Positions 1 through 59,687 of a DNA stretch of 64,000 nucleotides are shown here, in pieces. Numbering within the stretch: position 1 is the first letter of the stretch; each line of letters begins with the position of its first letter. The notes under the pieces were generated by a model. The model saw nothing but the letters and a program-made list of their open reading frames with translations. It was not told the origin of the DNA and searched no databases. Source of the DNA: an uncultured virus (IMG/VR IMGVR_UViG_3300037512_002166) (taxonomy: Duplodnaviria > Heunggongvirae > Uroviricota > Caudoviricetes); IMG/VR virus record IMGVR_UViG_3300037512_002166. The stretch is one strand, 5' to 3'. The translations under genes were made by a program, and so were the position numbers.

Positions 1-2261
1 TTCGACGTGGTGTCCTGCTGGTTAGGCTGGATGTTGCCCTCGTCGATCACGCCGTAGCCGTCGACCTTCTTCAGGGTTCCGTTGGCGTTCTTCTGGACGG
101 GGTTCTTGCCGTCTTCGGTCACGAGGATGCGGAAGTGGCAGCCGGCGCAGGGGCCGTCAGACATCACCACCGCCATCTCGCCGTCCTCGATGGCGCAGTC
201 GAAGATGTTGAACCCGAGGGCCTTCAGCTTGACGAAGAAGTGGCTGTAGCGGAGGTTGCCGTCGGCGTCGGTGTCATCGATGTTGTAGCCGTCGTCGAAG
301 TAGACGTCGGAAAGGACGTTCAGGGGGTTGCCCTGGCCGTCCTGCAGGTTCTTTATCGTCGGTTTGACGTCATCGAAGTCCTCAACGTGCTCGTGGGGCT
401 CCAGGGCGTCGTACTGATGCTCGAAATCGTAGTTCTCGCCCGTCTCCGGGTTGACGTATGCCTGTGCATAGGCCTCCGGCGGCGTGTCGGTCGCCTCGTA
501 GAAGCGGGAGGCGCCGTCGGTGTCGACGTAGATCGACGGCATGATGCAGCCGGTCGCGGGGATCTTGCGCGTCACGACCTGGGTGATGGTGTCGCCTACC
601 TCGGGCTCGCCCTCGATGGAGAGGCCGACCTCGGCAAGGGTCATCCCCAGCGGGCTGCCGCCGACATACCACCCCATCGGGGTGTAGGACTCCTTGCTTA
701 CCTGGAGGCGCTCGGCGACGAAGTCGACGTTCTCCCACCCGGAACCCTGTCCGTCCGGCGGAAGCATCCACAGGACGTGGGTCTGCAGGTGGCCGATGAC
801 GACGAGCGTAACCCTTGACAGGTCGGAGCCGGCGGGCAGCGACTCGACATACGCCCTCACGGCGTCCGCGGACACCCTCACGCCGACTACCTTCTCGTCG
901 GCGAACAGGCCCTTGTCCTCGGGCGCCACGTCGTTGCTGACGGTGACGGTGTCGAAGTCCGAGACCTCGACCTCGTGCGGGTTCGAGAGCGACATGCCGT
1001 CGCCCAGGCACAGCTTCACGCGGTCGACGACGATATCCCAGCCCTTGTCGCAGACCAGGGACGCGGCCCGGATAGAGCCGGCCTGCGGCGTCGAAGGATC
1101 GTCGTCCTGGCTCCAGAAATGGCGTATGGGCGCGTCGGGGTCGATCCCGGCGGCGCATCCCATCGGAGCGTAGAGCCCCATTTCAAGGGCCCCGACGTAG
1201 CCTCCTGACAGGTCAGAGGTAAGCCTGGCGCCGAAGGTCTGCTTCTTCCCGGAAACGACGGAAAGGTCCTCCAGCGCGGCGGTGGTATCGCTCCCCTGCG
1301 AGGTGCTCGTGGCGTAGCCGCCCGTGACGGACACGGAGACATACTCCGCGTCGCGGCCCATGTAGGTCAGGACGTCGGACAGGCCGATCCACTTCGCGAA
1401 CGCCTTCATGTCCACCACCTCGACGCCCTCGGCGGTTCCCCCGGCGGAGAGCCAGCCCTTGGGCGTAGGGTTCGGGTAGTAGTACGGTACGTTCTCGGAG
1501 GAACCCTTGCCGGTGATCCTCGTCACGATCTTGGCGTTCTGGTTGTTCTTCTGGACGGAGAGAAGCTCGTCGTCCGGGCCGTACTGCACGGGAAGGGGCA
1601 CGGCGCCCCCGTCGCCGAACACGGCGGAATCCCCGGAGAAGTAATACGGCACCTTCCAGACGCTGTAGGCCTCCGAAAGCGCCTCGGCGAGCGTCTTCTT
1701 GTCAAACGAAAGCTCCTTGCTCTCCGTGGTCCCCTGGTAGGCGGACTCGACGGAAACCGAGAAGCGGCTCTGCAGGCCGAGGGATGTAAGGACGTCGCTG
1801 AAGCGGGCGACAAACTCGTCCAGGGTCCCGAAGAAGGTCACCTTGTAGTCGTCGGAGGAGAACTTCCCCGCGCTCGCGGAGCCTGCGGCCACGCTGTCGC
1901 GGAAATACACGCCCGAGAGCAGGATGTCGCGCCGGGACTTGAACTCCAGGGTGTGGACGTACCGGGAATCCGTGTTGTCCTTGCTCGAAGACGGCGTGTG
2001 CGACAGGAAGAAAGCCTCCAGGCTCCCGACCGGCGTGCCGCCCTGCAGTGATGCCTCGTCGAGAACGACAAACTCCCTGCCGGTCCAGTAGCTGTCAAGG
2101 CACTTCGCGTGCTTGAGCGTCGCCGTCAGGGAGGTGGACCCCATACGCTCCGACACATAGTCGTAATCCAGCAGCTTCACGGGCTCGCCGTCAACCAGGA
2201 ACTGGCTGAAGGTCTGCCCGTCAGCAGAGAGCGTATAGATCGTCAGAAGTTCGATGTTCAC
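1..2261 (-). CDS. Tail tip/hub-like structural protein, runs off the left edge (not in ORF track)
   Basis: GTG at 2261 begins VNIELLTIYTLSADGQTFSQFLVDGEPVKLLDYDYVSERMGSTSLTATL; same frame is open at the window start (GYGVIDEGNIQPNQQDTTS); resembles Bacteroidales phage tail proteins; promoter directly upstream. Confidence 0.7.
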   Translation of the reverse strand, partial: MNIELLTIYTLSADGQTFSQFLVDGEPVKLLDYDYVSERMGSTSLTATLKHAKCLDSYWTGREFVVLDEASLQGGTPVGSLEAFFLSHTPSSSKDNTDSRYVHTLEFKSRRDILLSGVYFRDSVAAGSASAGKFSSDDYKVTFFGTLDEFVARFSDVLTSLGLQSRFSVSVESAYQGTTESKELSFDKKTLAEALSEAYSVWKVPYYFSGDSAVFGDGGAVPLPVQYGPDDELLSVQKNNQNAKIVTRITGKGSSENVPYYYPNPTPKGWLSAGGTAEGVEVVDMKAFAKWIGLSDVLTYMGRDAEYVSVSVTGGYATSTSQGSDTTAALEDLSVVSGKKQTFGARLTSDLSGGYVGALEMGLYAPMGCAAGIDPDAPIRHFWSQDDDPSTPQAGSIRAASLVCDKGWDIVVDRVKLCLGDGMSLSNPHEVEVSDFDTVTVSNDVAPEDKGLFADEKVVGVRVSADAVRAYVESLPAGSDLSRVTLVVIGHLQTHVLWMLPPDGQGSGWENVDFVAERLQVSKESYTPMGWYVGGSPLGMTLAEVGLSIEGEPEVGDTITQVVTRKIPATGCIMPSIYVDTDGASRFYEATDTPPEAYAQAYVNPETGENYDFEHQYDALEPHEHVEDFDDVKPTIKNLQDGQGNPLNVLSDVYFDDGYNIDDTDADGNLRYSHFFVKLKALGFNIFDCAIEDGEMAVVMSDGPCAGCHFRILVTEDGKNPVQKNANGTLKKVDGYGVIDEGNIQPNQQDTTS

Positions 2262-2301
2262 AGTTCAAGCGCTTTTGTGTACATTCTCGGTGGCATCGGG
2301 A

Positions 2302-2313
2302 CAAATATAACCC
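2302..2313 (-). promoter_or_regulatory. Bacteroidetes -7 promoter element (GGGTTATATTTG) for tail gene
   Basis: TAnnTTTG consensus; 17-bp direct repeat GGGACAAATATAACCCA at 2298-2314 and 2477-2493. Confidence 0.7.
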
Positions 2314-2384
2314 AATTTTTGACCAACTCCAAATTTTTTGCGAAATTTTTCACATGCGCGCATCATGCACACGCACATACGGGC

Positions 2385-2475
2385 AAAAAACAACCCCGGA
2401 GTCCTTCACAGGTGTCCGGGGCCGCGAACTCTCATCAAAGTTACGCCGTTTGATTATGAAAAAGTTAAAAATGTC
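2385..2475 (-). ncRNA. Candidate antisense sRNA E (anti-start-codon guide plus GTGA-loop terminator)
   Basis: Promoter at 2481-2492, U-rich segment complementary to TTTGATTATGAAAAAGTTAAAAA, then hairpin CCCCGGA..CCT-GTGA-AGG..TCCGGGG and U-tract. Confidence 0.5.
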
Positions 2476-2480
2476 AGGGA

Positions 2481-2492
2481 CAAATATAACCC
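2481..2492 (-). promoter_or_regulatory. Second GGGTTATATTTG promoter
   Basis: Identical copy of the 2302-2313 element. Confidence 0.7.
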
Positions 2493-2789
2493 ATTCCAAG
2501 CAAATAAGCAATACCCGGCGGAGATTTTTTGACTATTCTTGCATTTTCGATACAGATAGGCCCCATCCGGCAGATCTATCAGTAACGGATCCCTTTCTTC
2601 TGGATCCTGGCAGAAAATGGCGGGAGTTTTTCTTTTGCAAATAAGAATTCCCACACAGACATTCCCATACTCCAGTTCTTTTTCTTTCCTGGAGAAGAAA
2701 AATAAAAAAAAATTATAAAAAATAAAAAAATCGCAAAGGGGCACCCCGACCCTCCCTTCGTCCGGTAGCGGGGTGGGGTATCACTCAAA

Positions 2790-2936
2790 CAAGCCAAGCC
2801 AAGCCAAGCCAAGCCGGAAAGAATTGTATCTAATACGGACGTATTGCAAGCATACCAAGCCAAGCCAAGACAATAGGCCGGAAAGGGTGCAAGCCAAGCA
2901 AGCCAAGCCAAGCAAGGAAAAAACAAGCCAAGCAAG
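2790..2936. repeat. CAAGC/AAGCC short tandem repeats
   Basis: 5x AAGCC at 2791-2815 and further clusters to 2936, next to A-tracts and a GC hairpin at about 2740-2780. Confidence 0.85.
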
Positions 2937-3190
2937 CGCGAAAATGTCCACCCTCTTTCCATGTATTGCAGAGATTCAACAACACACAATCATAATACAT
3001 GAAACAATACACAACAATACACACAACCAAAGAGATACACTAAAAGAGATTCAAAGTATGTATTTACTCTTTCTTTCTTTCTCTCTCAAATAGTATCAAT
3101 ATCAAAGAATAGAAAGAGAGTAAAAGAGAGAAAGAAAGGGACTGCAAATGTAGGGTTTGAAAAAAGATTGCAATTTTTTTTGATGAAGTA

Positions 3191-3251
3191 TTGCAATATT
3201 AAAAATTGTTTGTATCTTTGCGGTGTACGATAGTACTTTGAAGTTCTTTGA
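3191..3251 (+). promoter_or_regulatory. Early promoter (TTG..TATCTTTG) followed by boxA-like AAGTTCTTTGA
   Basis: -7 TATCTTTG at 3213-3220; boxA-like motif at 3241-3251. Confidence 0.65.
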
Positions 3252-3888
3252 GTGGTCGCGGTGAAAAGCCTTGCAAAGGGTCTGCCTTTAGGCTTTCCGG
3301 CTCGCAGTGATGCAAGCCGGAAAGCGCAGAACCTTACAAGGCGAAGTAACCGCAGCGGTAACGGCTTAGGCCGTGACGTGGAATCACTAGTCTTGCTATT
3401 TGGCCGTAGTTCCATTAGATAGGAAAACGGCACGATAACGGCACAATGAGAGCAGCGGAAGCAATTACATGCAGCAAGAGCAAACAAAGAAAGCGAAAGC
3501 GAGTATTTGAGGGTTTGCATATAGGTCGCATTTTTTAACGTTTGAGCAAGTACACGTATTTGCAACACGTGTATACTACACAATCAGTCCCTTTGGAGAT
3601 AGCATCAAAGCAAGGGCGCAGCACCGATAGACAAAGCAAGCAGAAAGCGATGGAAAGGTCTGCAAGGGCATTGAAAGGGCCGTTATTTGATAGGACTGCA
3701 AGAGCAGCGCATCAGCGCAGCCGTAAACACTTTTACGGCTCTTTCTCTTGCAGTGATTCGGCATGTACATTTACTTGCTGAATCGGGTTTTATTTTGGAT
3801 TGAATAACGGCCTATCTATATTGATTTATAGATAGGTTTCAAAATACCTTTTATTCCTTTCATTTTTAACACTTTAAACCCTATCAAC

Positions 3889-4524
3889 ATGGAGAAAAAA
3901 TTTAGTATTGCAAAGGTGCGTAGCGCATACTGCAAGCAGATTGAGAAAGACCACCGCAGCCTTTCCGAGTATTTGCGTTTAATCAATGCCGATTTTGAGG
4001 CCTACACGGCTAAGAAACCCGCAGCGAGCGAGCGAGCGAAAGATAGTTACACCTTCTTTAGCGAGAGCAACACAAAGAAAGAGTACTTGTCTTTGTCTTT
4101 CATCAAGCAGTGGTACACGGGTATCGATGCGAAAGGCCGGATTTGCGATTTTAGAAAGGTCGCTTTGGCCGAAGAGCCGGAAGCACGCGAAAAATTCACC
4201 GACTACGATTTTATCGTAGACGATTCCGGAATCTGCAAAATGCTCGTACCCGTCAACCTTTGGACTGCTGCCAAGACTCTTTCTAAGATTGCAGCAGCAA
4301 TCAAAGCCAAGAAAGAGAGCGAGAACGCAGCGAGCGCAGCCGAGAGAGAGCAGCAGAAAGCCGAGCGAGAGCGCAAACAATATGAGAGCGCGCTAGCAAG
4401 GGTCAAAGCCTATGAGAGCAAGCAAGTCGCAGCAGCACCGCAGCCGAAAGCCGAGCCGAGCAAGCCGAGCGAGAGCAAGAGCGAGAGCAAGAGCGAGAGC
4501 AAGGCGAGCAAGGGCGAAAAGTAG
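3889..4524 (+). CDS. First early protein, hypothetical, low-complexity ESKS C-terminus
   Basis: 211-aa ORF with A-rich initiation region. Confidence 0.8.
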   Translation: MEKKFSIAKVRSAYCKQIEKDHRSLSEYLRLINADFEAYTAKKPAASERAKDSYTFFSESNTKKEYLSLSFIKQWYTGIDAKGRICDFRKVALAEEPEAREKFTDYDFIVDDSGICKMLVPVNLWTAAKTLSKIAAAIKAKKESENAASAAEREQQKAERERKQYESALARVKAYESKQVAAAPQPKAEPSKPSESKSESKSESKASKGEK

Positions 4525-4609
4525 GCGCAGCACCTTTGGCAGTGGGACGTCCGGTCTTCGGGCGTCCCGCTGCTGCATTATCTGAACTGATCAAGGAATT
4601 CAGATTGAT

Positions 4610-4652
4610 TCAAAGGGCCGTGAGTCGAAAGATTCGCGGCCCTTTTTGAATT
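4610..4652 (+). terminator. Intrinsic terminator-like hairpin
   Basis: AAAGGGCCG..GAAA..CGGCCCTTT followed by T-rich tract. Confidence 0.6.
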
Positions 4653-5280
4653 TATTTCGGTTCGAATCCGAATTCGGGTACACTTGCCGGTGGTTTGACA
4701 AACCGGCGCGAATCAATCCATGTAAAACCCGTTCCGAATCATACGAAATCAACGCATCTGCCCGAGCGAGCAAACGACAGAAATCGGGCAGTGAGCGCAG
4801 CGAAGTGATCACGAGCTGATCACGAGTATGTGACCGAACTACGGTCACGGATAGAACGGCGCGAAGTGGGGCGAGCCGGAGAGTGGAATCTCCGAGTCTT
4901 TTGAACCATCGTGCGTCCCGTAGCAGAACGCATTCCTGCGACGGAAGGGACTAACTGCGCAACAACGGCAAGAATGATTCATAATTTGAAAATTTTCCGG
5001 GCGAACTATGCCCGGACGAAGGGCCTGCATCTTCGGGTTGAAAGCAGGATAGCGAAAGACGGCGAACCAGTCTGCGCCTCCCATGGGCGGACAAATCATG
5101 GCTGCGTAATCCGGCGTACGGGACAACTGTACCCTGCCGGTTAGATGTTAACCACCACGTGCTTGGTGGACGGCGTAAGATTGCACTGGGATTTCCGAGA
5201 TACCCCAATTATCGGTAGTTCTTCGAACCGGCGGCGAGCGATCGCGGCCGGTTCTCCATTAACCAACAAATCATCAAATC

Positions 5281-5547
5281 ATGGACAATTACACCTACAA
5301 TCGCATCCGCCGCTCGAACGGCGGCCTCTGGTTCAAGCTTCGAATGATCGTCACGGGGATACTGCGCCCTGCCGTCTTCGAACGGAAATGGCAGCAGCAC
5401 GTGAACGAGTTCCAAGCCGAGCTGAACGCGAACAACTGGAACCGGCACGGGTTCAGAGTGGACCCGAGCGACCACAAGTATCACTTCGACCGGTTCGTCT
5501 ACGTCGAATTCGAGGACTTCGCGTACTCCGACGTCTGCGGCCGGTAG
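5281..5547 (+). CDS. Hypothetical early protein
   Basis: ORF with hairpin/AACC leader. Confidence 0.75.
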   Translation: MDNYTYNRIRRSNGGLWFKLRMIVTGILRPAVFERKWQQHVNEFQAELNANNWNRHGFRVDPSDHKYHFDRFVYVEFEDFAYSDVCGR

Positions 5548-13615: not shown

Positions 13616-13673
13616 ATCATGAGGCCGGAGACGAACCTCCGGCCCCGTGCAAACAACCAATCAACAAGTCATT

Positions 13674-13910
13674 ATGAAAAAGATCCTCGAAGTCTTCCAG
13701 ACGTACTGCGACGCGTATCTCGAGTACCTGAACAACTTCATTACCGCCGAGGCTTTTGAGAGCTTCTACAACCTCGACCCAAATGAGGTCAACTCGCTTC
13801 TTGTCGCCGCCAGGGCAACCCGCTCTGAGGGCGGATCGTATCGAGAAATCGACTGGTCCATGAACCGGACAACCAACACAAAGTACACGGAGAAGAACAT
13901 TCACCACTGA
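13674..13910 (+). CDS. Hypothetical protein
   Basis: ATG after leader. Confidence 0.7.
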   Translation: MKKILEVFQTYCDAYLEYLNNFITAEAFESFYNLDPNEVNSLLVAARATRSEGGSYREIDWSMNRTTNTKYTEKNIHH

Positions 13911-16784: not shown

Positions 16785-16840
16785 CTACGTGGCCGGCGGC
16801 ATAACACCACCGGCTTCGCCACAAACCAACAAATCACATT

Positions 16841-17308
16841 ATGAAAAAGTACAGACCTATTGCAGTGTATAACAAGGCAGAGGACATCGTCGACCTCTTC
16901 CCTTGCGACGCAATCAAGCCCGACATGGGCGACATCATCTACAAGCATTACATGGCCGGCCACGGCTCGCCCAGGCAGCTTAATTGTGGCGACGATCCAG
17001 AGAGCTGGTGGACCGAGAAGGAGGTCAAGTCAGACAAGAATTTCGTCCTCACTTCCGACAAACGGCACGGCGTGCGGTTCACTCGCGGATTCAAGCAGCA
17101 CGGATTGCCGATGGGTTACTTCATCGACATCTACGGACTCGTCGGCGAGGACGAACCGGCGCCAAAGGGCGTGACCCTCTACGAAGTCCGTTCCCTTGCC
17201 ACGCGCCAGGACGTCGGCTGCGAGGCTATGGATGCCGAGACGCTGGCTATACGTCTTCCGGATCTCATCGAGAAGAACGGCAGCGTCATCGTGCTTCAGC
17301 ACGAGTAG
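16841..17308 (+). CDS. Hypothetical protein
   Basis: ORF with leader. Confidence 0.7.
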   Translation: MKKYRPIAVYNKAEDIVDLFPCDAIKPDMGDIIYKHYMAGHGSPRQLNCGDDPESWWTEKEVKSDKNFVLTSDKRHGVRFTRGFKQHGLPMGYFIDIYGLVGEDEPAPKGVTLYEVRSLATRQDVGCEAMDAETLAIRLPDLIEKNGSVIVLQHE

Positions 17309-20046: not shown

Positions 20047-20698
20047 GGCTTGCCCGGAATTGAACCTCCGGGCGGGCTCAAAAACCAAACTAAAATCAGA
20101 CATTGATAAATTTCTGGGCATTAAGCCTGTCACATTTACGCGATAGGCGATTCACCCAGTCAACATCAAAAATTATCTACACGACGGTGCCTTTACCTCC
20201 CTCCAAACTCTACCAGACAAAGCTGGAGATTTTGAGAAAAATACTCCAAAAATATAATTTTGGCCTTCTTTCGAGCTGTTTTGCCTCAAGAAGCGTTATC
20301 GCGTCACCGTCGGAACGCGTGCTTCATGGCCCCTCCCGGTAGCTTGCGTCGGCGCTACATCGCTGTTTTGGAGGTCGCCAGTCGTCAGTTGGACGTTGCT
20401 GGCACTATTCATCGCGATGCACTCTAATCACGCCGAAACAAAGGCGGCACACTTTGGTTGTGGGATTATTTGGAGCCACGGCCGTGAAAACGCTCCAGCT
20501 TGAAAGATCTATATGGACCTTCTATAAAAGAAAATCCGCACCAGTTTCACGGCTCCTGGTGCGGACTATATGATATTAGCCCCGTCGGGCGCATATCCCA
20601 TGTGCGAAGTCTTATATGCACCGTGCCGTTCGGTACGGTACAAAGGTAACCCAATATTTCGGAAAAACAAACAATTTGGGTAAATATTTCACAAAATT

Positions 20699-21337
20699 TT
20701 ACTCAACGCCCGCGTGGCCGACCACAATGCCGACCGCAAGTACGTCCGACATTGGGATAGAATAGTCCGGATAGGCCTCGTGATTCTCCGAGTGGCAGAT
20801 GATCCTGTCCTCGGCCGCCGGGTCCGGCAGGAGCTTCTTTACGACGCATCCCTGGGTCGTGCTGAGGACGTACACCTTTCCCCATTGGAAGAACGAAGGG
20901 TCCTTGATGATCCGGACCGCCAGGATGTCCCCGTTGCTGTAGCGCGGGTACATGGAGTCGCCGTCCACGCGGATGGCGCAGTCGGCGCCACGGGCCGAGA
21001 AATCCTCGAAAACGACAGCGCTGCGGCCGAACGCGTCCTCGCGGTTGTTATCCGTAAGGAAGCCGGCCACAGCGGAGAAGGGCAGGAGCGGGATATATGA
21101 GTATTCCTCGGTGTTTTCCGGTTTACTTCTTAAACCGCTACCTCCCCCTCCACCTTTGTCGGTGAGTATAGAAGTGTCCCAGTCGGGGTTCTCGAGGATT
21201 TTCCGGAGCTTATCCTCGGGGATACTTCTTGACTCGTTGATGAGCTTTGTGATGAAAGAATTGCTAACTCCAAGATATTCAGCCATCTCGGACTTTTTTA
21301 TCCCGTTCGTGAACAGGAATGTGTCAAATTTTTTCAT
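20699..21337 (-). CDS. CI-like repressor (HTH plus S24 peptidase)
   Basis: N-terminal HTH; AG cleavage site, GDSMYP and VKK motifs. Confidence 0.92.
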   Translation of the reverse strand: MKKFDTFLFTNGIKKSEMAEYLGVSNSFITKLINESRSIPEDKLRKILENPDWDTSILTDKGGGGGSGLRSKPENTEEYSYIPLLPFSAVAGFLTDNNREDAFGRSAVVFEDFSARGADCAIRVDGDSMYPRYSNGDILAVRIIKDPSFFQWGKVYVLSTTQGCVVKKLLPDPAAEDRIICHSENHEAYPDYSIPMSDVLAVGIVVGHAGVE

Positions 21338-22145: not shown

Positions 22146-22233
22146 GGAGGTTTACCCAAGTGGTGAAGGGGCCACATTGCTAACGTGGTAGGTCCGAAAG
22201 GGCGCGAGGGTTCGACTCCCCCAGCCTCCGCCA
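22146..22233 (+). tRNA. tRNA-Ser(GCT)
   Basis: Cloverleaf with long variable arm, loop TT-GCT-AA, encoded CCA. Confidence 0.92.
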
Positions 22234-22236
22234 GGT

Positions 22237-22298
22237 ACCGCAGGGATGCGGGAATTTTGCTTCTACTTAACTTGTCAACGCCGGGCGTCGTCCCGGCA
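22237..22298 (+). ncRNA. Candidate sRNA D between two tRNAs
   Basis: CCGCA-GGGA-TGCGG hairpin, 27-nt U-rich linker, GCCGGG/CCCGGC hairpin. Confidence 0.4.
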
Positions 22299-22301
22299 CT
22301 T

Positions 22302-22388
22302 GGAGAGATGGCAGAATGGTTTAATGCATCGGTCCAGAAAACCGCTGGTCGCGAAAGTGGCCTGGGGGTTCGAATCCCTCTCTCTCCG
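22302..22388 (+). tRNA. tRNA-Ser with AGA anticodon (atypical C33)
   Basis: Ser body GGAGAGA/TCTCTCC-G, long variable arm, loop CC-AGA-AA. Confidence 0.8.
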
Positions 22389-22404
22389 CAGATTTTTGAA
22401 TTAT

Positions 22405-22763
22405 GGGGCTGTTTTGGTTTTGACTTGCATGATGCAGGTACTGACTTACGCTCCGTGTGGTGATCACGGGTAATAAAAGCACCGAAAACACAAACGGCAA
22501 GAACATCATCAGCAGTGTCGCGAACAAGGTTCGTAGCCTGCGCAGCGCGATCGCGAACTTCTTCGCTCCTCGTGATATCGACGAGTTCGCCCTGGCTATT
22601 GCCTAAGATTTCCGGGTTAGATTAAACCCGGTGGTGGAGATGGGCAGAGTTGATACCTTCTGTCCTCGGTCCTGGAGCCGGACCTAAAAGGCTATCCTAA
22701 GCGTATGAACAAAGTCAGTATGGGCGCGTGTATAGGACCCGGATTCGACTTCCGGCAGCTCCA
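22405..22763 (+). ncRNA. ssrA: tmRNA
   Basis: GGGGCTG/CAGCTCC-A acceptor with G3-U, T-arm, tag ORF 22496-22606 ending FALAIA-stop. Confidence 0.92.
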
Positions 22764-22894
22764 CTTGTACGCAGTGAGGTATGCCCTCTAAGGAACAACA
22801 CTCCACTTGCCGATTTATTGCGGCCGGAAAAGCATAACGCCGGTCGTAATGCGGGGTGCCGAAGAGCCAGGTAGCGCTGGCCGCTGTGTAAAAT

Positions 22895-22967
22895 GGCTTT
22901 GTAGCTCAACGGGCAGAGCGACTGCTTTGTAAGCAGAAGGTTGTCGGTTCGATTCCGGCCAAAGCCT
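22895..22967 (+). tRNA. tRNA-Thr(TGT)
   Basis: Cloverleaf, loop TT-TGT-AA. Confidence 0.9.
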
Positions 22968-22973
22968 CAGTTT

Positions 22974-23045
22974 ACGGACTTAGCTCAGCGGCAGAGCGCC
23001 AGGCAAGAGGTCTGGAGGACGGGGGTTCGAGTCCCTCATTCCGTA
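22974..23045 (+). tRNA. tRNA-like gene with aberrant anticodon loop (CAAGAGG)
   Basis: Canonical D and T arms; acceptor has one mismatch; no U33. Confidence 0.6.
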
Positions 23046-23047
23046 CT

Positions 23048-43105: not shown

Positions 43106-43139
43106 GAAATAGGGAGGGTTCATCGCCCTCCCTATTTCT
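43105..43139. terminator. Bidirectional terminator
   Basis: 14-bp perfect stem AGAAATAGGGAGGG/CCCTCCCTATTTCT between convergent genes. Confidence 0.85.
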
Positions 43140-46100
43140 ATGCCATCTCGGTGATGACCTTCAGCGCTCCGGCGCCCTTCGGGTGGCCGCCCGGATAGTA
43201 CACCGCCGATGCGATCCTCGCGATGTCGGCCAGGTACCGCGTCTGGGACTTCAGCTGGGTGAGAATCGTGTTCTCCCCCTCACCTGTCAGCGCGGTCTCG
43301 ATGTTCGTCACCTTGGCATTCGTATCCGAGACGTTGTAGCTAGTCGTATTGAGGATGGACTCGACGGCGGAGGCCGTCTGTTCCGTCACCGTCTGCACGC
43401 CCCGCTGGAGCGTATTCTCGGAGACGGAACCAGAGGAAACCCCAAGCCGGCGAGCCTCGCCCTCAAGCTGGCGATTCCAGTCGTACAGCATCTCCTTGTA
43501 GGACCGGATGGTCTCTGCCTCCATGTCGGAGATTCGTCCGTCCGCAAGGGCCTTTTTTATCGCATTCTGGACCTCTTCGATATGGTCTCCCATCACGGAA
43601 CTCCAAAGCTGGCCGACAATGATGTCATCATACAGCTTCTCGAAGTCGTCACGCAGGGACTTCAGCCCGTTGCCGGTCTCCTTGAAGGCGGACAGCCAAT
43701 CAGAGGACCAGCTCTTCGCCGTGCCCTGGGAGTCGGTAGACAGGCCGAGCATCTCATAGAACTCGTCCTTCAGCTCGACAAGCTTGTCCTTGACCTCGGA
43801 AAGCTGCTCGGACAGCTCCTCGGTCTCCTTCTTGACCTCATCGGTCTGCTTCCGCTGGCCGTTGGCCGCAATAGCCTCTTCCAGCTCTTTCCGTTGTTTG
43901 ATGAGGTTGGCGTTCATCTCCGCGAAGGAGGAGCGCAGCCGCGAGACGTTGATGGCCTTGTCCATCGCCTTCTGGAGCCGGTCGTAGGCCTTCTCCAGCT
44001 TCTCGACGACATCCTTGTGCTCCTCGACCTGCTTCTTCAGCCGGTTCTCCTTGATCGTGATGGCGGCGATGATGGAGCCGACAACGGCGAAGGCGGCGAT
44101 GAGCGGGCCGATGAACGGGGTCAGCGTGGCGATGAGCTTCTCTCCGGTCTTCAGCGTGATGGTCTCCATGGTGTTATATGCAGCCATGGCGGCCGTAGCC
44201 AGAGAGATGGCCTGGCCTACAAGCTTGAAGCCCTTCGTGAAGCCTTCGATTCCGTCCTTTACATCGTCTGAGATCGGAAGGCCGAAAGCCTCCGCCATGT
44301 CCTCCACCAGTTTAATGGTGTCGTCGATGGTATTGCCGACCTGACTGTACGCGCTCTCGATCTGCTGCATGCGGGCGGTCGAGTTCTTAACGGCCTTGTT
44401 GGCGCGCGTCTGGGCGGAGTTGAAGTTGTTCGTCGCGTCGGTGAGATTCTGCTCGGCGATGGCGGATTCCTGGACCGCTGCGGTCATCTCGATGAAGTTC
44501 TCGTCGGTCTGTTCGGCCGCATACGCCGCCCGGGCCTCACGCTCGCGGTTCAGGGCCTCGAAGTATTCCTTCTGCGCCTCGGCGACCTTGCCGGACAGCT
44601 CGGGCAGATCCTTCAGCGCGGAGCGCGCCTCGCCGATCTCGCGCAGACCGGTGGCAATAGCCTCGAAGAAGCTGGAAACCTCGTTGTTTCCGGCCTGGTC
44701 CTCGATACGCTTGATGTTCTTCACGATCGCCTGGATCTCGGTCGGGTTCAGCGCGCCTTCCGGCAGCTGGAGCCAGTATTCGAGATTGGCCTTCAGTGAG
44801 GCGAGCAGCTCGTCGGACATGCCGGACAGGTCGCCGAACGCCAGGGCGTAAGCCTCGGTGCTCTTATAGGCGTCCCATTGGGCATCGGCGATGTCGCGCG
44901 TAGACTTGGCGATCTGGTTGTTGATGGCCACCGTCTTCTCCTCCTCGTTGTCCCAGGTCCGGATCTTGGAGACGTTCTCTATCATCTCCTTGTAGGCCTG
45001 CTCGATCTTGTCGAGAGACTTGGTGTTCGCATCGTACATGATCTTCGCGACCTCCTCCTGCTCCGTGCGGGCAATCTGGACGCGCTTCTCGGCGATGTCA
45101 TTCGCCAGCTTCACCGCCTCGTCTCCAAGGCCGGAATCGCGCAGGTACTTCTCGAGGGCCTTGATCTCGTCCATCACCTCGGACGTGGTACCCTCGGTCG
45201 GCGAGAGGCCCCAATCCTGCATCTTCTTGCTGTTGTCATAGCGGTCCCAGAGATCGGAGACCAGGTCTGAATAGGCCTTCAGCTTATCCTCGGCCTTGTC
45301 GGTGATGAGGTTCAGCTCGATGTCGATGCGATCCTTCGTCTCCAGCTTGCTCTTGTACTTCTCGATGAGGGCCATAATCTGCTCGTCGGTGGCCTTGAAG
45401 TCGTCTCCGAGGCTGATGCTGACCTTCTTCCCGAGGGCGGCCAGCTTCTCCAGGTACTTGACGTCACCCTCGTCAGAGAGCTTGTCGAGCTCCTTGCGGG
45501 CGTTGCGCAGGGCGGTGAGGAAGGTGTTCAGGTCGGTCTTGTAAGAGCTGGCACCATTCTTCTCTGTCTTAACATCCTCGGTCGCGCCAAGTTCGGTGCG
45601 AAGCTCCTTGAGCATGTTGATGTACGTCTGGAGCTCTTCCTTGGAGCCGAACTGATGGAGCAGCTCGACCATGCGCGGGGCTGCGCCGGTCGTCTTCCCC
45701 TGCTTGATCAGCTCCTGGAGCTTGACCCACTCCTCGGCGGCTCCGATGGCCTGCTCGAGTTCCTTGTCGATATTCCCGATGTAGTCGGAGACGGTCTGGC
45801 CGGTCTCGTACTTGAGAATACCCTCGCCGATGACGGAGGTTCCGACCTTGCCGAACTTCTTCGCCACGCGGTCCTGCACGTCACGGATAGCCTTCTCGAC
45901 GTCACCGCCCTCGTTGGCGGCCGCCTTGAACGCATTCTCGAGCGCCGTATTCAGCTCGTCCTTCATGAAGTCCTCAATGTCACCCAGGGCGCCGTTGTCG
46001 ATCTGTTTCTTGATGCCATCGCGGACACCCTTCAGATACTCGATGAAGTCCTTCTCCTTGAGCGCCGGATTGAACGAGTACTCTTCCTTTTTGTTGTTCT

Positions 46101-48699
46101 TGTCGAACTCGGCCTTGGCCTGGGAAAGGGTCTTGATGAGGTCAAGATACGGCAGCTTCGCCTTGGCGATCGTTTCGCCGGGGACCTTCGCAATCGCGTC
46201 GTCGATCATCTTCGCCTGCTTGATGACGTCACCGAAGGCGCCACCGATCTGGCGGATGAAGTATTCGGACAGGCTGTCGATTCCGTTCTTGATCTCTTCC
46301 TCGGAGCGGCCGGCGATGGTCCAGGCCTCCTTGAGCGCGAACTTGCCGGCCTCCAGGGTACCCTTTACCGTTCCGTCAAGGATGGCTGCAGATACCTTGT
46401 TCTCGATATGCTCATAGTCGCTGTCTTCGAGGAGTTGCACGCCGATGTCCACCTTATCGCGGTCGAACCCGTAGCCCTTGGCGTTCCCGCTGACCATCTC
46501 GTTGCGCAAGGACTTTGCGCGCGACTCGGCCTTCTTCTGGGACTCTGACATGGCCTCGTTGATGGCCTTTGCCCGGGCCTCCTCGTACGCCTGGACGCGG
46601 ATCAACTCGATCTGCTCGCGGCGGGCGTCGTTGAGCTCCTGGACGTTGTCCAGTTCAAGCTTCTGGATATTGAGGATGTTTCCGTATTCAGCCTTCAGCT
46701 TGTCGAGCGCGGTCTGCCGGTCCTCCAGCTTGTTGTTGGTGTCGGCAGCGATGTCGAGCAGCTTCTCGAAGCGGGTGATCTGCGAATTGAGGTTTGTTGC
46801 AGCCTCGGCGCCTATTTCATTGAGCGTCTTGCGGAGCTGGTTCGCCTTGGCGATAATGTCAACGAGGACCATTCCGATGTAGATGAGGATTCCGAGCCAG
46901 TTCTGCTTGATGATGGCGCCGATCGAAGCAACCGTACCCCTAAACCCGATAGCCACCCGGTTCAGCGCCGTGAGCTCGTGGCCCATGGCGATGAACTTAC
47001 CCTGCATGTTCGCCACGGTCGCAGTGATCATCTTGCCAGCCCTGGTAAGACCGATAAGGCCGGCCGTACCCTTCACAAGCATGAAGACGATGAGCGGCTC
47101 CATGATGGACGCTAGCGCCTGCCAGTGGCTGATGATGTTCTCCAGGCCGGTGATGACACCCTTGATGAAGGCGTCGTGGCCCTTGCCGATATTGTTGAAC
47201 ATGATCTGGATGCGGTCGTTCAAGTTGGAAATGCGGCCCTGGATCGTGTCCGCCTGTATCTCCTGCATCTTGTAGAACGCGCCGCCAAGCTCGGTAGTCT
47301 TCTTGAGGACGGCCTCCACGTCGGCAAACTTGACCATACGCTTGGAGACCATCTGCATGACCTCACCGACAGACACCGTGCGGTTGTAGATTTCGGTGAA
47401 ACGATCCGCCAGGCCGCCCAGCATGTTCACGCCGGCTTCCGAGAACTGACGGAGTTCGGTTCCCTTCAGGAACTCGGCCGCTTTTACCTGGCCATATGCG
47501 AGTATGAGCCTTTGCATGTCGACGCCAACACCGGCGCTGATGTCGCCGAGCATCTTGGTGGTCTCGATCAGCTTGTTGGTCTCGATACGGTACGCAGCCA
47601 GCTGCTTGGTCTGTTGGAAGAGCTCCTGCACGGAGAACGGAGACCGCACGGCGATCTTCGTAATCTCGTTGAACATGGCGCCGGCGGTGTTCGCGTCCTG
47701 GATGATGACGGCGAGGGAGCGCTGGGCGAGCTCGAATTCGCCGCGCACCTTGATCATCTCGGACAGGAAACGCTGGACGATGAACGGAGAGAAAGCGGTC
47801 ATGAGGAGCGTCCGGACCATGCCGGCGCTCGTGCTCGTCTCCCGGAGGGTGGCGTTGACCTGCTTGATGCCGGCGGTGGTCCTCGCAATCTGGGCGTTCA
47901 CCTGCTGCAGGTACGTCGGATTGATGAGGCCCTTGCCGTTCTGGTCCTTCTCCAGCTCACGCTTCACGGCCTTCAGCTGACGGAGCTTCTCGAGCATCTG
48001 GTCAACATTCGACGGATTGACCCCGAGGATACCGGAAGCCTTCCGGGCGATCTTGCCGGCCGCATCCATCTCCTTATAGTATTTGTCCTCCTCCTTCGCG
48101 AGCTTCGTGGCCTCCTTCTCAAGATCCTTATAGTAGGTCTTCATCTGCTTGAGGCCGTCGTTCGCTGCGGTGAGGCTCTTGATGTATTCGTTGAATTCCC
48201 CGACCTGCTGCTTCGTCAGATTGCCGCCCAGGGCCGCCTTACGCGCATCGAGCAGCTTGCCGAGCTGCTCCTTCAGGGATTCGATCTCCTGCTTGTTGCG
48301 CTCGATATCCTCGGGCGACATGCGGATAAGGCCCTGCTTCTGGAGGCTGGCATAGTTATACAGGTCGGACAGCCGATTTCGGATGTCGTCAATCTTCGTG
48401 GTATAGTCTGCGATGGACTGCTTCACGGCGCTCGACCTCTGGGCCACCTTGGTGACCGTCTCGCCAATGAGGCTGATGCTGCGCAGTGCGCCGGACGCAT
48501 CGAACGCCGCGCTGAACGTGGCGCCGGTACCCTTCATCTTCTCGGCCATCGTGGTTACGCTGCCGGACACCTTTTCGAAGCTTTCCGCGAGCTTCACCGA
48601 AGCGTCGCTCATCTTCTCGATGGAACCCTGTGCGGTCTTGAGATCTTCTATGATTTTGCTGTCAAGCTTGAGAGCAGCAGCTACGCCTTCCTGTGCCAT
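43138..48699 (-). CDS. Tape measure protein
   Basis: 1853-aa helical protein, tape-measure domain (SPF..LGD..LAYGQV..G.ELRQF.EAG), after tail chaperones. Confidence 0.92.
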   Translation of the reverse strand: MAQEGVAAALKLDSKIIEDLKTAQGSIEKMSDASVKLAESFEKVSGSVTTMAEKMKGTGATFSAAFDASGALRSISLIGETVTKVAQRSSAVKQSIADYTTKIDDIRNRLSDLYNYASLQKQGLIRMSPEDIERNKQEIESLKEQLGKLLDARKAALGGNLTKQQVGEFNEYIKSLTAANDGLKQMKTYYKDLEKEATKLAKEEDKYYKEMDAAGKIARKASGILGVNPSNVDQMLEKLRQLKAVKRELEKDQNGKGLINPTYLQQVNAQIARTTAGIKQVNATLRETSTSAGMVRTLLMTAFSPFIVQRFLSEMIKVRGEFELAQRSLAVIIQDANTAGAMFNEITKIAVRSPFSVQELFQQTKQLAAYRIETNKLIETTKMLGDISAGVGVDMQRLILAYGQVKAAEFLKGTELRQFSEAGVNMLGGLADRFTEIYNRTVSVGEVMQMVSKRMVKFADVEAVLKKTTELGGAFYKMQEIQADTIQGRISNLNDRIQIMFNNIGKGHDAFIKGVITGLENIISHWQALASIMEPLIVFMLVKGTAGLIGLTRAGKMITATVANMQGKFIAMGHELTALNRVAIGFRGTVASIGAIIKQNWLGILIYIGMVLVDIIAKANQLRKTLNEIGAEAATNLNSQITRFEKLLDIAADTNNKLEDRQTALDKLKAEYGNILNIQKLELDNVQELNDARREQIELIRVQAYEEARAKAINEAMSESQKKAESRAKSLRNEMVSGNAKGYGFDRDKVDIGVQLLEDSDYEHIENKVSAAILDGTVKGTLEAGKFALKEAWTIAGRSEEEIKNGIDSLSEYFIRQIGGAFGDVIKQAKMIDDAIAKVPGETIAKAKLPYLDLIKTLSQAKAEFDKNNKKEEYSFNPALKEKDFIEYLKGVRDGIKKQIDNGALGDIEDFMKDELNTALENAFKAAANEGGDVEKAIRDVQDRVAKKFGKVGTSVIGEGILKYETGQTVSDYIGNIDKELEQAIGAAEEWVKLQELIKQGKTTGAAPRMVELLHQFGSKEELQTYINMLKELRTELGATEDVKTEKNGASSYKTDLNTFLTALRNARKELDKLSDEGDVKYLEKLAALGKKVSISLGDDFKATDEQIMALIEKYKSKLETKDRIDIELNLITDKAEDKLKAYSDLVSDLWDRYDNSKKMQDWGLSPTEGTTSEVMDEIKALEKYLRDSGLGDEAVKLANDIAEKRVQIARTEQEEVAKIMYDANTKSLDKIEQAYKEMIENVSKIRTWDNEEEKTVAINNQIAKSTRDIADAQWDAYKSTEAYALAFGDLSGMSDELLASLKANLEYWLQLPEGALNPTEIQAIVKNIKRIEDQAGNNEVSSFFEAIATGLREIGEARSALKDLPELSGKVAEAQKEYFEALNREREARAAYAAEQTDENFIEMTAAVQESAIAEQNLTDATNNFNSAQTRANKAVKNSTARMQQIESAYSQVGNTIDDTIKLVEDMAEAFGLPISDDVKDGIEGFTKGFKLVGQAISLATAAMAAYNTMETITLKTGEKLIATLTPFIGPLIAAFAVVGSIIAAITIKENRLKKQVEEHKDVVEKLEKAYDRLQKAMDKAINVSRLRSSFAEMNANLIKQRKELEEAIAANGQRKQTDEVKKETEELSEQLSEVKDKLVELKDEFYEMLGLSTDSQGTAKSWSSDWLSAFKETGNGLKSLRDDFEKLYDDIIVGQLWSSVMGDHIEEVQNAIKKALADGRISDMEAETIRSYKEMLYDWNRQLEGEARRLGVSSGSVSENTLQRGVQTVTEQTASAVESILNTTSYNVSDTNAKVTNIETALTGEGENTILTQLKSQTRYLADIARIASAVYYPGGHPKGAGALKVITEMA

Positions 48700-52060: not shown

Positions 52061-53218
52061 TTAGTCAGCGGTGGTGGTTGCGACGATCACGTGGTCCAGG
52101 AACTCCTCGAGAACAGGGACGGCGGACACGAAGAGGTCGGTGTGCCACTCCTTGAAGTCGCCGTTGTTCAGCGTGGTGTTCATGATGGTGAAGATGTCGA
52201 GGTTCGCGAACACCTTGTCGATGATCTTGGAACCGTACTTCTCCGCCATCTTTCGGTCGAGCAGCTCGGCGCGCTTCACCGTGCCGGCGAAGCCGACAGG
52301 GCGAAGGACAGCCTTGTTGGCGGCCCAGCCGTGAACCGGAGTACCCTCGTTGTACTGCTTCTCCTCGACGATCTCGATGGGGGAGATCTTCGGGTTGTCG
52401 GTAGCGAAGGCCTCGTTGAACATCTTCTCGTTCATGCTCCAGCCGGCCACGTTCGGCTTGTCGTTGACAGTACGCCAGTCGGTGATGTAGGCGATCACCT
52501 GAGCGTTCTTCAGAACGTAGTTGTGGAACATGTCGCGGGTCATCTGCCACTTGAGGGCGCCGGCATAACCGGTGCGGTCGCGGAAGTCCTGCTCGATCTT
52601 CTCCATCTGGTCCAGGAGCTTGCAGTTCGCGTTGTCGGCCCAGGACACCGTGCCGGCCTTCACGAAGTTCTCCGTAGGGATCGGAGCCTTGTAGATAGGC
52701 CCGGTGATACCGGAACCCTGGTTGTAGATCACGGAACCGGTGGAGAGGGCCATCGCAGCCAGATGGCTGAGGGTGCTGTCGGCCTCGCGGACCATCTGCT
52801 GGATGTCGTCGGCGTAGGCAGACAGGATCTGGGCGTCGTTGCCGAAGTATTCCTCGAACATGCGCTCCTTGGCCTCGCGCTCCATCGCCTGCTCCACGAA
52901 GCCACGGGCCGCGAAGTCAGGGATGGTACCCTCGTAATGCTCCAGACCGTTCTTGTCGCGGACCTGGGTCTCGCCAAGAGGGGCACGCCAGTCGAGCATG
53001 TTCTCCAGAACATTCTTGCGCATGTTCGCGGAGAAGAGCGCCGTACCGTCGTTGTTGCGGGGCGTGAGGGTCGGATCAACAGAGAACTGGCCGCGCCAGA
53101 AGGACGGCAGCCGCTTGATGATCACGGGGTCGTTCACGAAGAGGGTGAGAGCCTGACGAGCGTCGCGGCTACCCCAGAACTTCGCGTAAGTAGAGAGGTT
53201 GAAGTCATATTTTGCCAT
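52061..53218 (-). CDS. Major capsid protein
   Basis: 385 aa, strong codon bias, position after scaffold and decoration genes. Confidence 0.8.
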   Translation of the reverse strand: MAKYDFNLSTYAKFWGSRDARQALTLFVNDPVIIKRLPSFWRGQFSVDPTLTPRNNDGTALFSANMRKNVLENMLDWRAPLGETQVRDKNGLEHYEGTIPDFAARGFVEQAMEREAKERMFEEYFGNDAQILSAYADDIQQMVREADSTLSHLAAMALSTGSVIYNQGSGITGPIYKAPIPTENFVKAGTVSWADNANCKLLDQMEKIEQDFRDRTGYAGALKWQMTRDMFHNYVLKNAQVIAYITDWRTVNDKPNVAGWSMNEKMFNEAFATDNPKISPIEIVEEKQYNEGTPVHGWAANKAVLRPVGFAGTVKRAELLDRKMAEKYGSKIIDKVFANLDIFTIMNTTLNNGDFKEWHTDLFVSAVPVLEEFLDHVIVATTTAD

Positions 53219-57991: not shown

Positions 57992-59214
57992 TCTGGCCAG
58001 TCGAACAGCGCGAGCACCTTCGCGTTGGCCTTCCAATACCGACTCCAGTCCTTCCGGATGTAGATGTCGGCCATCCGCATACTCCGGTTGACGTGACACA
58101 TGCACTCGTCAACCGTAACCGGGTCGATTCCGGCCTCATTCCTTGCGACGGTGCCCCATGAATGCCTGGCTGAATATACGTCGATTTTAGGCACGTTTAT
58201 TCTTTCGCAGAAGGCCTTCAGCCCGACATTGGCCGCCCTGCCCAGGTTCTCGTATCTCGAGTATCTGTTGTGAAAGTTGAAAGCCCGCGAAATGTCCCCG
58301 TACTCATCGATCAGCGGCCGTACGCACGGCTCGATTCTGACATGCATCTCTGCGCCGTCATCCCGGCGCTCCTTGGTCTTCGTACGCCGGTAGACGATGA
58401 CTCCGCCCTTTGGCCTGGGGCAGCCGTAGATGTCCGGCGTGTTCATACCCATGAGCGCGAAGCTGATGAGGAACAGGTCGACGCCCAGGCGCTCCCGGCC
58501 AGTCAGCTCATCACGCCGGCGCAGCATCTCCCGGATGATCTCCATGTCGATGTCGCGGTGGCCGGCCTTCGCCGCCGCCTGGCGAGGTGGATGGTAATAC
58601 TCGAACGGGTTCCGGATGGGGATCTGGTCCGACTCCTCGTTGTTGAATTCTTCCCGCGCCCTACGGTGGACGTAAGCGACCGCAGACGTATAAAGACTCA
58701 CCGCCCTGGCGGAATCTCCGTATTTGGCCCGCAGATGCTTCTCGTACCGGCGCATCATGGACGATGATATGGAGGAGATGTCGAAATGGTCGGCGCCCAT
58801 GAAGCCGCACAGCGAATGTAGCGCGCACAGGTAGTTCGTCCTTGGGTTTTTCTTCTTCTCGTCCGCGATGCGCTGGAAGTAGTCCGGGAAGTCAAGCTTG
58901 AACGCCTCGTCGCCGCCGGACAGCGCCCGCCCGATGTGGTATGCGATGTCGGACACACCCATCGACTCCATCTCAAACGGATCGAGCGCGTTCGCTGCGG
59001 CACGCATATTGCGGACAACCTGGGCGATGGCCTCCGACACAGCCGGGTCCTTGATTTCAAAGCTGCGCGTCAGCTGGCTGCGGTCGACGAGGAAATTCGT
59101 GGACACGACCTTCTGCTTTCTCTTGTATGTGATGCGGATTCGGACCGGATACGTGCCGTCCTTCTTCTTCTCGCCCTCACGGACGACAGGCGTAATGGAG
59201 ACTGATGATGGCAT
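57988..59214 (-). CDS. int: Tyrosine integrase (Bacteroidetes arm-binding type)
   Basis: KKDGTYPVRIRI N-terminus; R.KT, YSARHSW, MCH..IY catalytic motifs. Confidence 0.92.
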   Translation of the reverse strand: MPSSVSITPVVREGEKKKDGTYPVRIRITYKRKQKVVSTNFLVDRSQLTRSFEIKDPAVSEAIAQVVRNMRAAANALDPFEMESMGVSDIAYHIGRALSGGDEAFKLDFPDYFQRIADEKKKNPRTNYLCALHSLCGFMGADHFDISSISSSMMRRYEKHLRAKYGDSARAVSLYTSAVAYVHRRAREEFNNEESDQIPIRNPFEYYHPPRQAAAKAGHRDIDMEIIREMLRRRDELTGRERLGVDLFLISFALMGMNTPDIYGCPRPKGGVIVYRRTKTKERRDDGAEMHVRIEPCVRPLIDEYGDISRAFNFHNRYSRYENLGRAANVGLKAFCERINVPKIDVYSARHSWGTVARNEAGIDPVTVDECMCHVNRSMRMADIYIRKDWSRYWKANAKVLALFDWPD

Positions 59215-59344
59215 AGGAGGTGAGTTTGTTTCCCCAAATTTACAAACAATTCTCAAACTATTTTCAAACATTTTACACGGAAACCGTGTTTTTTATCGTT
59301 TGTCGATATGGAGATTTCCGCCGAAAATTCGCCAAATAGCAACG

Positions 59345-59380
59345 AAAAAAGCCCCTCCAGGACTACTGGAAGGGCTTTTT
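59345..59380. terminator. Intrinsic terminator after tRNA-His fragment
   Basis: AAAAAGCCC..GGGCTTTTT. Confidence 0.8.
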
Positions 59381-59386
59381 GCCTTT

Positions 59387-59434
59387 TGGGGTGCGATGTG
59401 GGGCTCGAACCCACGACACCCAGAACCACAATCT
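59387..59434 (-). pseudogene. 3' half of tRNA-His(GTG) (attP core)
   Basis: AGATT-GTG-GTTCTG..GGTTCGAGCCC..CCCA; no 5' half. Confidence 0.85.
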
Positions 59435-59548
59435 TGACATCATATCCCCCGTAACGGCCGAAAATCAGGCAATTAACGAACAATCGAGATAATTTTTCTC
59501 AAACTATTTTCAAACATTCAGAAAATGTTGTATATTTGCAGTCAACAT

Positions 59549-59620
59549 TGCGAGGTGGAGCAGCGGTAGCTCGCCGGGCTCATAACCCGGAGGCCGAGGG
59601 TTCGATCCACTCTCTCGCTA
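59549..59620 (+). tRNA. Initiator tRNA-fMet(CAT)
   Basis: 1:72 mismatch, three G-C pairs in anticodon stem; TATATTTG promoter at 59531-59538. Confidence 0.88.
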
Positions 59621-59687
59621 CGAAATTTCATTGCGCGGACGTTTCGCCCCTGGATTACCGGAACAGGTATTCTGGGGGCGATGATTT

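Follow-up and report, generated by a model that had tools for sequence, protein, structure and literature searches.

Promoter, terminator and tail-fibre gene

The locus lies near the left end of the 64,000-nt stretch of viral DNA that we analysed (the window), where a long minus-strand ORF is preceded by two copies of one promoter core with a terminator hairpin between them. The window is itself part of an 81.8-kb metagenome contig (L001, 100% identity). The features at the locus, together with three genes that help to place the phage, are as follows.

2509..2511, minus strand: −33 element TTG of the predicted promoter P2, 20 nt upstream of its −7 box
2477..2493, minus strand: second copy of a 17-nt exact repeat (TGGGTTATATTTGTCCC), containing the P2 −7 box
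2481..2488, minus strand: P2 −7 box TATATTTG, of the Bacteroidota sigma-A type
2385..2476, minus strand: predicted non-coding transcript ("sRNA E"), 88-92 nt, with its start at about 2476-2474 and its end in the U-tract
2449..2476, minus strand: A/U-rich 5' part of the RNA, unpaired or weakly paired
2391..2425, minus strand: terminator hairpin with a GUGA loop (11 outer pairs, a 2x2 internal loop, 3 inner pairs)
2385..2390, minus strand: U6 tract of the terminator
2298..2314, minus strand: first copy of the 17-nt exact repeat, containing the P1 −7 box (2309..2302)
3..2261, minus strand: 5' part of the tail-fibre gene (ORF of 1722 aa that runs off the window), GTG start at 2261
2456..2644, plus strand: 62-codon ORF (MKKL...), judged not to be a gene
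20699-21337, minus strand: cI-like HTH+S24 repressor
43138-48699, minus strand: tape-measure protein
52061-53218, minus strand: major capsid protein

Judged from its predicted genes, the phage is a temperate siphophage of Bacteroidota. A Pfam scan of the ORFs gave RecT, a DnaB-like helicase, a DnaD-like loader and RusA; the phage also encodes a tyrosine integrase with Bacteroidota-type arm and SAM domains, a BACON-domain protein, one tmRNA and five tRNAs. The host very probably belongs to the Bacteroidota, because the promoter motif of that phylum is enriched in the window and the gene starts that we read have no Shine-Dalgarno sequence; none is present upstream of the starts examined at 3889, 13674 and 16841. 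The public runs found to contain the stretch 1500-5500 (n = 24) include bovine gut metagenomes (X3, X5), and none of the 24 is listed as an RNA data set.

Several other parts of the window bear on the phage as a whole. The tmRNA lies at 22405-22766 (Rfam 71.8 bits, E 5.9e-26; not called by ARAGORN), flanked by three tRNA-Ser genes and one tRNA-Thr gene (window 22146-23046). The tyrosine integrase gene (Arm-DNA-bind_5, Phage_int_SAM_5) adjoins a complete tRNA-Met with its own TATATTTG promoter and a terminator of −27 kcal/mol; this region, 57988-59682, is a possible attachment region. A 954-aa ORF at 55127-57991 on the plus strand, opposite to that of the head genes, has terminase-large-subunit-like and P-loop matches and a weak match to a Hint domain, and may encode an intein-bearing terminase.

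The 1722-aa ORF starts 36 nt downstream of P1. Its homologues begin with MNIELLTIY at the same point, with N-termini 93-67% identical to that of the fibre protein in P0002-P0004; four of them carry PF13884, and one is named a tail fiber domain-containing protein; given these starts and names, the label "tail-gene promoter" that a sequence-only reading of this DNA had attached to P1 is correct. At seven distant fibre loci (L003-L009, about 30% identity), the gene lies within a co-directional tail operon with gaps of 0-43 nt in every case, and the promoter-terminator unit is absent from all seven. In the window lineage, a 40-kb plus-strand block stands between the fibre genes and the tape-measure gene, and the arrangement upstream of the fibre gene is, judging by these loci, peculiar to that lineage.

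The sequence-only reading had also described a duplicated promoter on the minus strand. Indeed, positions 2477-2493 hold an exact copy of the fibre-gene promoter core: GGGTTATATTTGTCCC is found exactly twice in the window, at 2298-2313 and 2477-2492, both on the minus strand, and allowing up to three mismatches yields five matches where 0.33 are expected (0 of 100 shuffles reach five). The two copies of the 17-nt repeat are 179 nt apart, and the sequences that flank them are unrelated. P1 has TTTG at 2333..2330, exactly 20 nt upstream of its −7 box TATATTTG, and P2, with a spacer of 20 nt, is a full match to the Bacteroidota sigma-A consensus (−33 TTTG / −7 TAnnTTTG) given in the available text of PMC6847099. 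In the window, 13 sites carry the full motif (TTG, 17-23 nt, TAHHTTTG), compared to 0.8 ± 1.0 in dinucleotide shuffles, a 16-fold enrichment; the maximum across 200 shuffles is six.

The position of the start can be estimated in two ways. The G of the Bacteroidota −7 box sits at −5, according to the accessible part of PMC6847099, and the tRNA-Met provides a calibration within the phage: its box, of the TATATTTG type, lies at 59531-59538, and the tRNA 5' end, at 59549, is 11 nt past the box. Together these place the predicted P2 start at about 2476-2474. Since the same type of box drives the tRNA-Met, this class of promoter appears to run small stand-alone RNA units in the phage.

The terminator hairpin begins about 50 nt past the predicted P2 start. 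Its outermost pair joins G2425 to the first U of the tract (2390), and the hairpin passes directly into the U-tract, as in an intrinsic (Rho-independent) terminator. At −24.1 kcal/mol it ranks fifth among the 72 hairpin-plus-T-tract candidates in a scan of both strands. A simple terminator scan did not list the hairpin (2425..2391), probably because the internal loop interrupts the stem. The terminator should work on the minus strand only, because the plus strand has no T-run after the hairpin; the stem-loop has no second copy of at least 12 nt within the window. Both elements of the minus-strand unit of about 90 nt that the sequence-only reading saw ending in a GUGA-looped terminator just before the tail-gene promoter are therefore present.

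The predicted 92-nt RNA has a folding energy of −30.6 kcal/mol (z −3.21), a stability matched by 2 of 200 shuffles. We found no credible ORF between P2 and the terminator, and the longest minus-strand ORF within the unit has nine codons (AUG 2435 to UGA 2406). A leader-peptide attenuator built on this mini-ORF, whose stop codon lies in the terminator loop, was considered and rejected: in the X6/X7 relative described below, codon 2 is changed to a stop. The segment 2385-2493 has no match in Rfam, either at the gathering threshold or at E ≤ 10. The in silico evidence gives good support to a stand-alone transcription unit of about 90 nt, and we think it probable that a discrete RNA is made from P2. 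In B. thetaiotaomicron, eight of nine Northern-validated sRNA candidates (11 tested) have a start site and an intrinsic terminator, according to the part of PMC7366714 available to us.

A second orphan promoter-terminator unit lies at 20525-20648 on the minus strand, just downstream of the cI-like repressor gene. It consists of TTG, 19 nt and TACCTTTG, followed by a 112-nt RNA with a 12-bp terminator; the fold of this RNA has a z of −3.49, and 0 of 200 shuffles are as stable.

Relatives of the locus and the plus-strand ORF

The sequences from four public runs that were compared with the locus are all DNA contigs. Only two relatives of the locus were found, L002 (98% identity) and the X6/X7 contig (95%). 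L002 is identical to the window over 2214-2600, the whole unit included; this identity reflects a recent shared block and not selection, because identity also holds across the 1.2 kb that reach up to 4196, a stretch that includes coding sequence. Between 4196 and 2214, L002 matches the window exactly outside a few patches, and from 2213 leftwards it differs by 3.5%, mostly at synonymous sites; this mosaic joint at 2213 lies 48 nt inside the fibre ORF. Upstream of P2, a minus-strand hairpin at 2585-2605 reads GGAUCC-N9-GGAUCC in the window and GGAUUU-N9-GGAUCC in L002, a variant in which pairing is kept in the minus-strand RNA through two G-U pairs and is lost on the plus strand. The same hairpin stretch is replaced in X6/X7.

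The X6/X7 contig shows 54 differences in 1085 nt (1500-2584); the changes described here come from the 37 of these 54 that were listed, with 2433-2584 (the seed and P2) seemingly outside that set. Those listed in 2385-2432 are at 2390, 2413, 2426 and 2432. The change at 2390 affects the outermost G-U pair, and with it the first U of the tract, and is the only one among the listed changes to hit a stem pair; the others fall in the internal loop (2413), on an unpaired base (2426) and in a weak 5' hairpin (2432). That at most one of the four listed changes falls on a paired base has a P of about 0.2, with numbers too small for a test. Among the listed changes, five fall in the 63 nt of 2370-2432 (about 8%) versus none in the 108 nt around P1. 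Because the 3' half changes faster than the P1 region, the hairpin rather than its sequence looks constrained. In addition, X6/X7 has a T inserted after 2448, replaces 2584-2606 and skips 2764-2889.

Searches of wider collections brought no further relatives. There was no match to the locus among GenBank phages and nothing close to it among GTDB genomes, and IMG/VR gave no match for the fibre protein, its 211-aa neighbour, an exact piece of 29 nt or a degenerate hairpin pattern; a search with the 17-mer gave five loci, all in unrelated contexts. A 26-nt exact identity was seen between window 2446-2471 and G001:C1:24141-24162 (L017, L020), in a 37-kb viral genome of 26% GC, where it covers codons 3-11 of a 109-aa ORF preceded by AGGAG (Shine-Dalgarno). 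We rejected this identity as a sign of relationship and judge that it arose by chance in a phage with another host.

The plus strand of the unit could instead encode a small protein, of 62 aa from ATG 2456 or of 96 aa from 2354, in which case the minus-strand features would be incidental. The start site itself looks good: its score is 8.3 bits on a matrix derived from 70 phage gene starts, whose own median is 5.4, and only 47 of 2038 ATG sites reach 8.3 bits; in addition, each of the five ATGAAAAA sites of the window begins an ORF of 43 codons or more. However, the plus strand of 1-3212 is free of TAnnTTTG boxes, and neither a homologue of the ORF nor a hit to itself was found among 5.8 billion proteins. 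Of the four nucleotide changes that L002 has in the ORF, none is synonymous, and together they alter three amino acids (L>P, D>N, W>R); in contrast, 15 nucleotide changes in the fibre gene of L002 alter two amino acids in 144 codons. The ORF is broken in X6/X7, where 101 nt take the place of 21 nt and the net gain of 80 shifts the frame. Translation of this ORF was the outcome that the sequence-only reading had named as fatal to its own proposal, and the promoter, homologue, substitution and frameshift evidence all goes against it; we consider a plus-strand protein extremely improbable. With the opposite-strand ORF judged not to be a gene, there would be nothing for the RNA to repress in cis.

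Complementarity to start codons and readings of the unit

Two folds of the predicted RNA differ over the 5' part: nucleotides 1-23 are unpaired in a 101-nt fold, and in the 92-nt fold nucleotides 11-17 of the supposed seed pair weakly. The core of the 5' part, 2465..2453 (ACUUUUUCAUAAU), is complementary to the start-codon context AUUAUGAAAAAGU. The sequence-only reading presented the 5' part as complementary to TTTGATTATGAAAAAGTTAAAAA, an "MKKL start"; the letters agree, but as a target this sequence is merely the opposite strand of the unit itself. Two candidate targets lie elsewhere in the window.

16838..16850, plus strand: 13-nt identity with 2453-2465, spanning the ATG of a 155-aa ORF (MKKYRPIAVY...)
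13671..13682, plus strand: 12-nt identity with 2453-2464, spanning the ATG of a 78-aa ORF (MKKILEVFQTY...)

The 13-mer ATTATGAAAAAGT occurs at 2453-2465 and at 16838-16850, both on the plus strand, and the copy at 13671 matches it at 12 of 13 positions. The match at gene 16841, also pointed out in the sequence-only reading, is real and covers the ATG, but it is not exceptional, as 18.5% of 3000 random 91-nt segments have a 13-nt repeat elsewhere in the window. The 12-mer ATTATGAAAAAG has three copies in the window, far above shuffles, and two of them are at real gene starts. These two of the three copies are explained by the phylum's own preferences, since A at −3 and A-rich codons after the ATG are selected at Bacteroidota starts (PMC6847099, in the portion available).

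Ranking by energy leads to a similar reading of the candidates. For the 24-nt 5' end, the duplex with 16841 (−13.3 kcal/mol) ranks second and that with 13674 (−11.7 kcal/mol) fourth among 72 curated gene starts, and shuffled seeds reach the best energy in 174 of 500 cases and the second best in 79 of 500. When a 32-nt seed is set against 802 ATG sites, shuffles equal the best energy in 44 of 100 cases and the second best in 29 of 100. The fibre mRNA leader is not among the eight best of the 72 starts for pairing with the RNA. Local A/T richness (GC 0.447 in 2001-4000) inflates the resemblance of the site to a start context. Complementarity to phage gene starts is within chance, and that the RNA is an anti-start-codon riboregulator is possible but doubtful.

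Our preferred reading, held tentatively and with the whole statement read loosely, is that the unit encodes a functional sRNA co-regulated with the fibre operon. RNA polymerase would start at about 2476-2474 and stop in the U-tract at 2390-2385, giving an RNA of 88-92 nt. Because P2 and P1 share the promoter core, this RNA would be made while the fibre operon is on, and the terminator would stop transcription from P2 from running over P1. A weaker step is that the RNA may act in trans through its A/U-rich 5' end, the complement of a well-formed Bacteroidota start context (AUUAUGAAAAAG); such pairing would mask mRNA start codons in the manner of GibS, and the only candidates that can be named are phage genes 16841 and 13674. 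A promoter core that is duplicated and then terminated is the build expected of a fibre-coupled RNA that spares P1, and it is for this reason that we favour the co-regulated sRNA. The enrichment of the promoter motif, the tRNA-Met precedent, the rank of the terminator, the z of the fold and the second orphan unit argue for it; the points against it are that conservation does not extend beyond relatives of 95-100% identity, that the targets are at chance level, that part of the supposed seed pairs weakly in the 92-nt fold, and that the unit is absent at seven of seven distant loci. A "timer" riboregulator, in which the sRNA appears with the late genes and would shut off translation of the early-region genes gp16841 and gp13674, and perhaps host MKK-start envelope mRNAs, we regard as quite unlikely.

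The function proposed in the sequence-only reading was silencing of host MKK... envelope or receptor mRNAs, leading to superinfection exclusion. The RNA 5' end is the complement of an MKK-type start context, and repression by sRNAs at translation initiation regions does work in Bacteroides (PMC7366714, in the part available), but seed pairing with phage gene starts is not above chance, and a promoter in common with the fibre gene would suggest that the RNA is made late in lytic growth, whereas exclusion requires expression in the lysogen. We consider this version very unlikely; the observation on which it was built is real and the transcription unit plausible, and the function speculative. An idle RNA fits the same chance-level target signal, and with it the conservation of the unit in close relatives only. 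In such an account, a serious rival if on the unlikely side, the 179-nt unit would be a by-product of module shuffling at a shared promoter, a recombination relic or "empty cassette" that may still be transcribed and whose terminator at most shields P1 from upstream transcription. The sequences on either side of the 17-nt repeat are sharply unrelated, as at a recombination joint, and the region is mosaic: the L002 fibre gene differs by 3.5% from position 2213 on, patches are replaced at about 2940-3017, and the replacement of 2584-2606 and the skip of 2764-2889 in X6/X7 point the same way. Composite promoter-terminator shuffling motifs are known in T4-type phages (PMC2839356 and PMC4122927, in the excerpts available). 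A dead relic should decay, however, and here the two promoter copies carry no defect, few terminators in the window are stronger, and promoters and terminator are intact in two relatives among the listed differences; moreover, the hairpin is not repeated in the window, unlike those of the PeSL cassettes of T4-type phages.

The remaining account is that P2 and the terminator form a leader of the lambda 6S / StxS type. Here the pair would be a cis checkpoint for the late fibre operon, in which polymerase from P2 halts at the terminator unless a phage factor gives read-through, and the short RNA would be a by-product. The anatomy is the same, in that late structural genes of a temperate phage are immediately preceded by a promoter, a short leader and a strong terminator; the available text of PMC7547250 lists short late-promoter RNAs for lambda, 21, phi80, 82, P22 and Stx phages and states that StxS acquired a function in trans. 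But P1 is an exact copy of the promoter core placed between the terminator and the fibre GTG at 2261, and therefore the fibre operon is independent of read-through. No Q-type antiterminator, sigma factor or known late regulator was found by Pfam among 92 ORFs, where about 18 kb of the contig is outside the window (about 5 kb of that readable) and regulators of Bacteroidota phages are largely uncatalogued. The predicted folds likewise have no alternative anti-terminator pairing. We consider a leader of this type unlikely.

Likeness to known small RNAs and neighbouring features

As a whole, the unit comes closest in anatomy to the lambda 6S and StxS RNAs, with which it shares a short RNA, a late-type promoter and a strong terminator upstream of late genes in a temperate siphophage; membership fails on one defining point, the presence of P1 after the terminator. 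Those RNAs are also 194-258 nt long compared to about 90 nt for the window unit, whose promoter is of the Bacteroidota −33/−7 type. P22 sar and lambda OOP are small cis-antisense phage RNAs. As in these RNAs, the 5' part of the window RNA is fully complementary to a start-codon context of the other strand, but unlike in sar and OOP, the opposite-strand ORF in the window has no promoter, homologue or conservation. To our knowledge, Bacteroidota lack Hfq. The prophage "moron" sRNAs AsxR and AgvB of EHEC lambdoid phages are likewise small autonomous RNA units beside late genes; they are 51-60 nt long, bound by Hfq, arranged as convergent pairs downstream of PR', and act as sponges of host sRNAs (PMC4104026). 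The PeSL cassettes of T4-type phages, as described in the accessible parts of PMC2839356 and PMC4122927, also combine a compact promoter with a stem-loop at a mosaic boundary; unlike in the PeSLs, the repeat in the window is a 17-nt promoter core only, in two copies, and the stem-loop is unique in the window.

Within the Bacteroidota, the likeness is to GibS and other sRNAs of B. thetaiotaomicron. In the text available from PMC7366714, these have their own start site, which for the window unit is predicted, and a Rho-independent terminator, and GibS pairs through a single-stranded 5' seed with translation initiation regions. The window RNA has an A/U-rich 5' part, unpaired or weakly paired in the predicted folds, that could pair with initiation regions that have no Shine-Dalgarno sequence. 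Unlike GibS, the window unit is encoded by a phage and is conserved only in near-identical relatives; it has no sequence similarity to GibS, no Rfam match and no validated target. A full-text literature search found no characterised small RNA from a Bacteroidota phage in the portions of papers that it covered.

If the unit is functional, temperate phages of the gut and rumen would use the same device as lambda and the Stx phages, a short late-promoter transcript, in this case built on the phylum's own promoter and on its rules of translation without a Shine-Dalgarno sequence, and it would allow the action of sRNAs at A-rich start contexts to be studied in a simple case. Should it act as a timer between late and early genes, it would be the first sRNA described from a Bacteroidota phage, with a generic "anti-start-codon" seed. 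If it is a relic, the unit would mark a recombination joint at the tail-fibre (host-range) gene.

Other sequence features around the unit were also considered. A candidate operator palindrome, ATGCGCGCAT (2354-2363), was rejected as chance level, since 64 of 100 shuffles have equally many matches. An imperfect 26-nt inverted repeat lies at 2459-2484 and 3850-3875, with weak arms; CATTTTTAAC is present twice (2 of 100 shuffles), and there is an invertase gene at 18637. We rejected an invertible segment between these arms on account of their weakness and the absence of strand-switch joints in the compared contigs.

Upstream of the unit, the 1.4 kb at 2494-3888 has no convincing ORF. It contains a 32-nt A-tract at 2700-2731, clusters of CAAGC/CCAAG pentamers at 2786-2935, and a patch at about 2940-3017 that differs between the window and L002. 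Divergent promoters at 3152 (minus) and 3213 (plus), with terminators at 2729 (minus) and 3742/3789 (plus), would yield non-coding RNAs of about 410 and 520 nt, and the region could be origin-like or an island of non-coding RNA genes.
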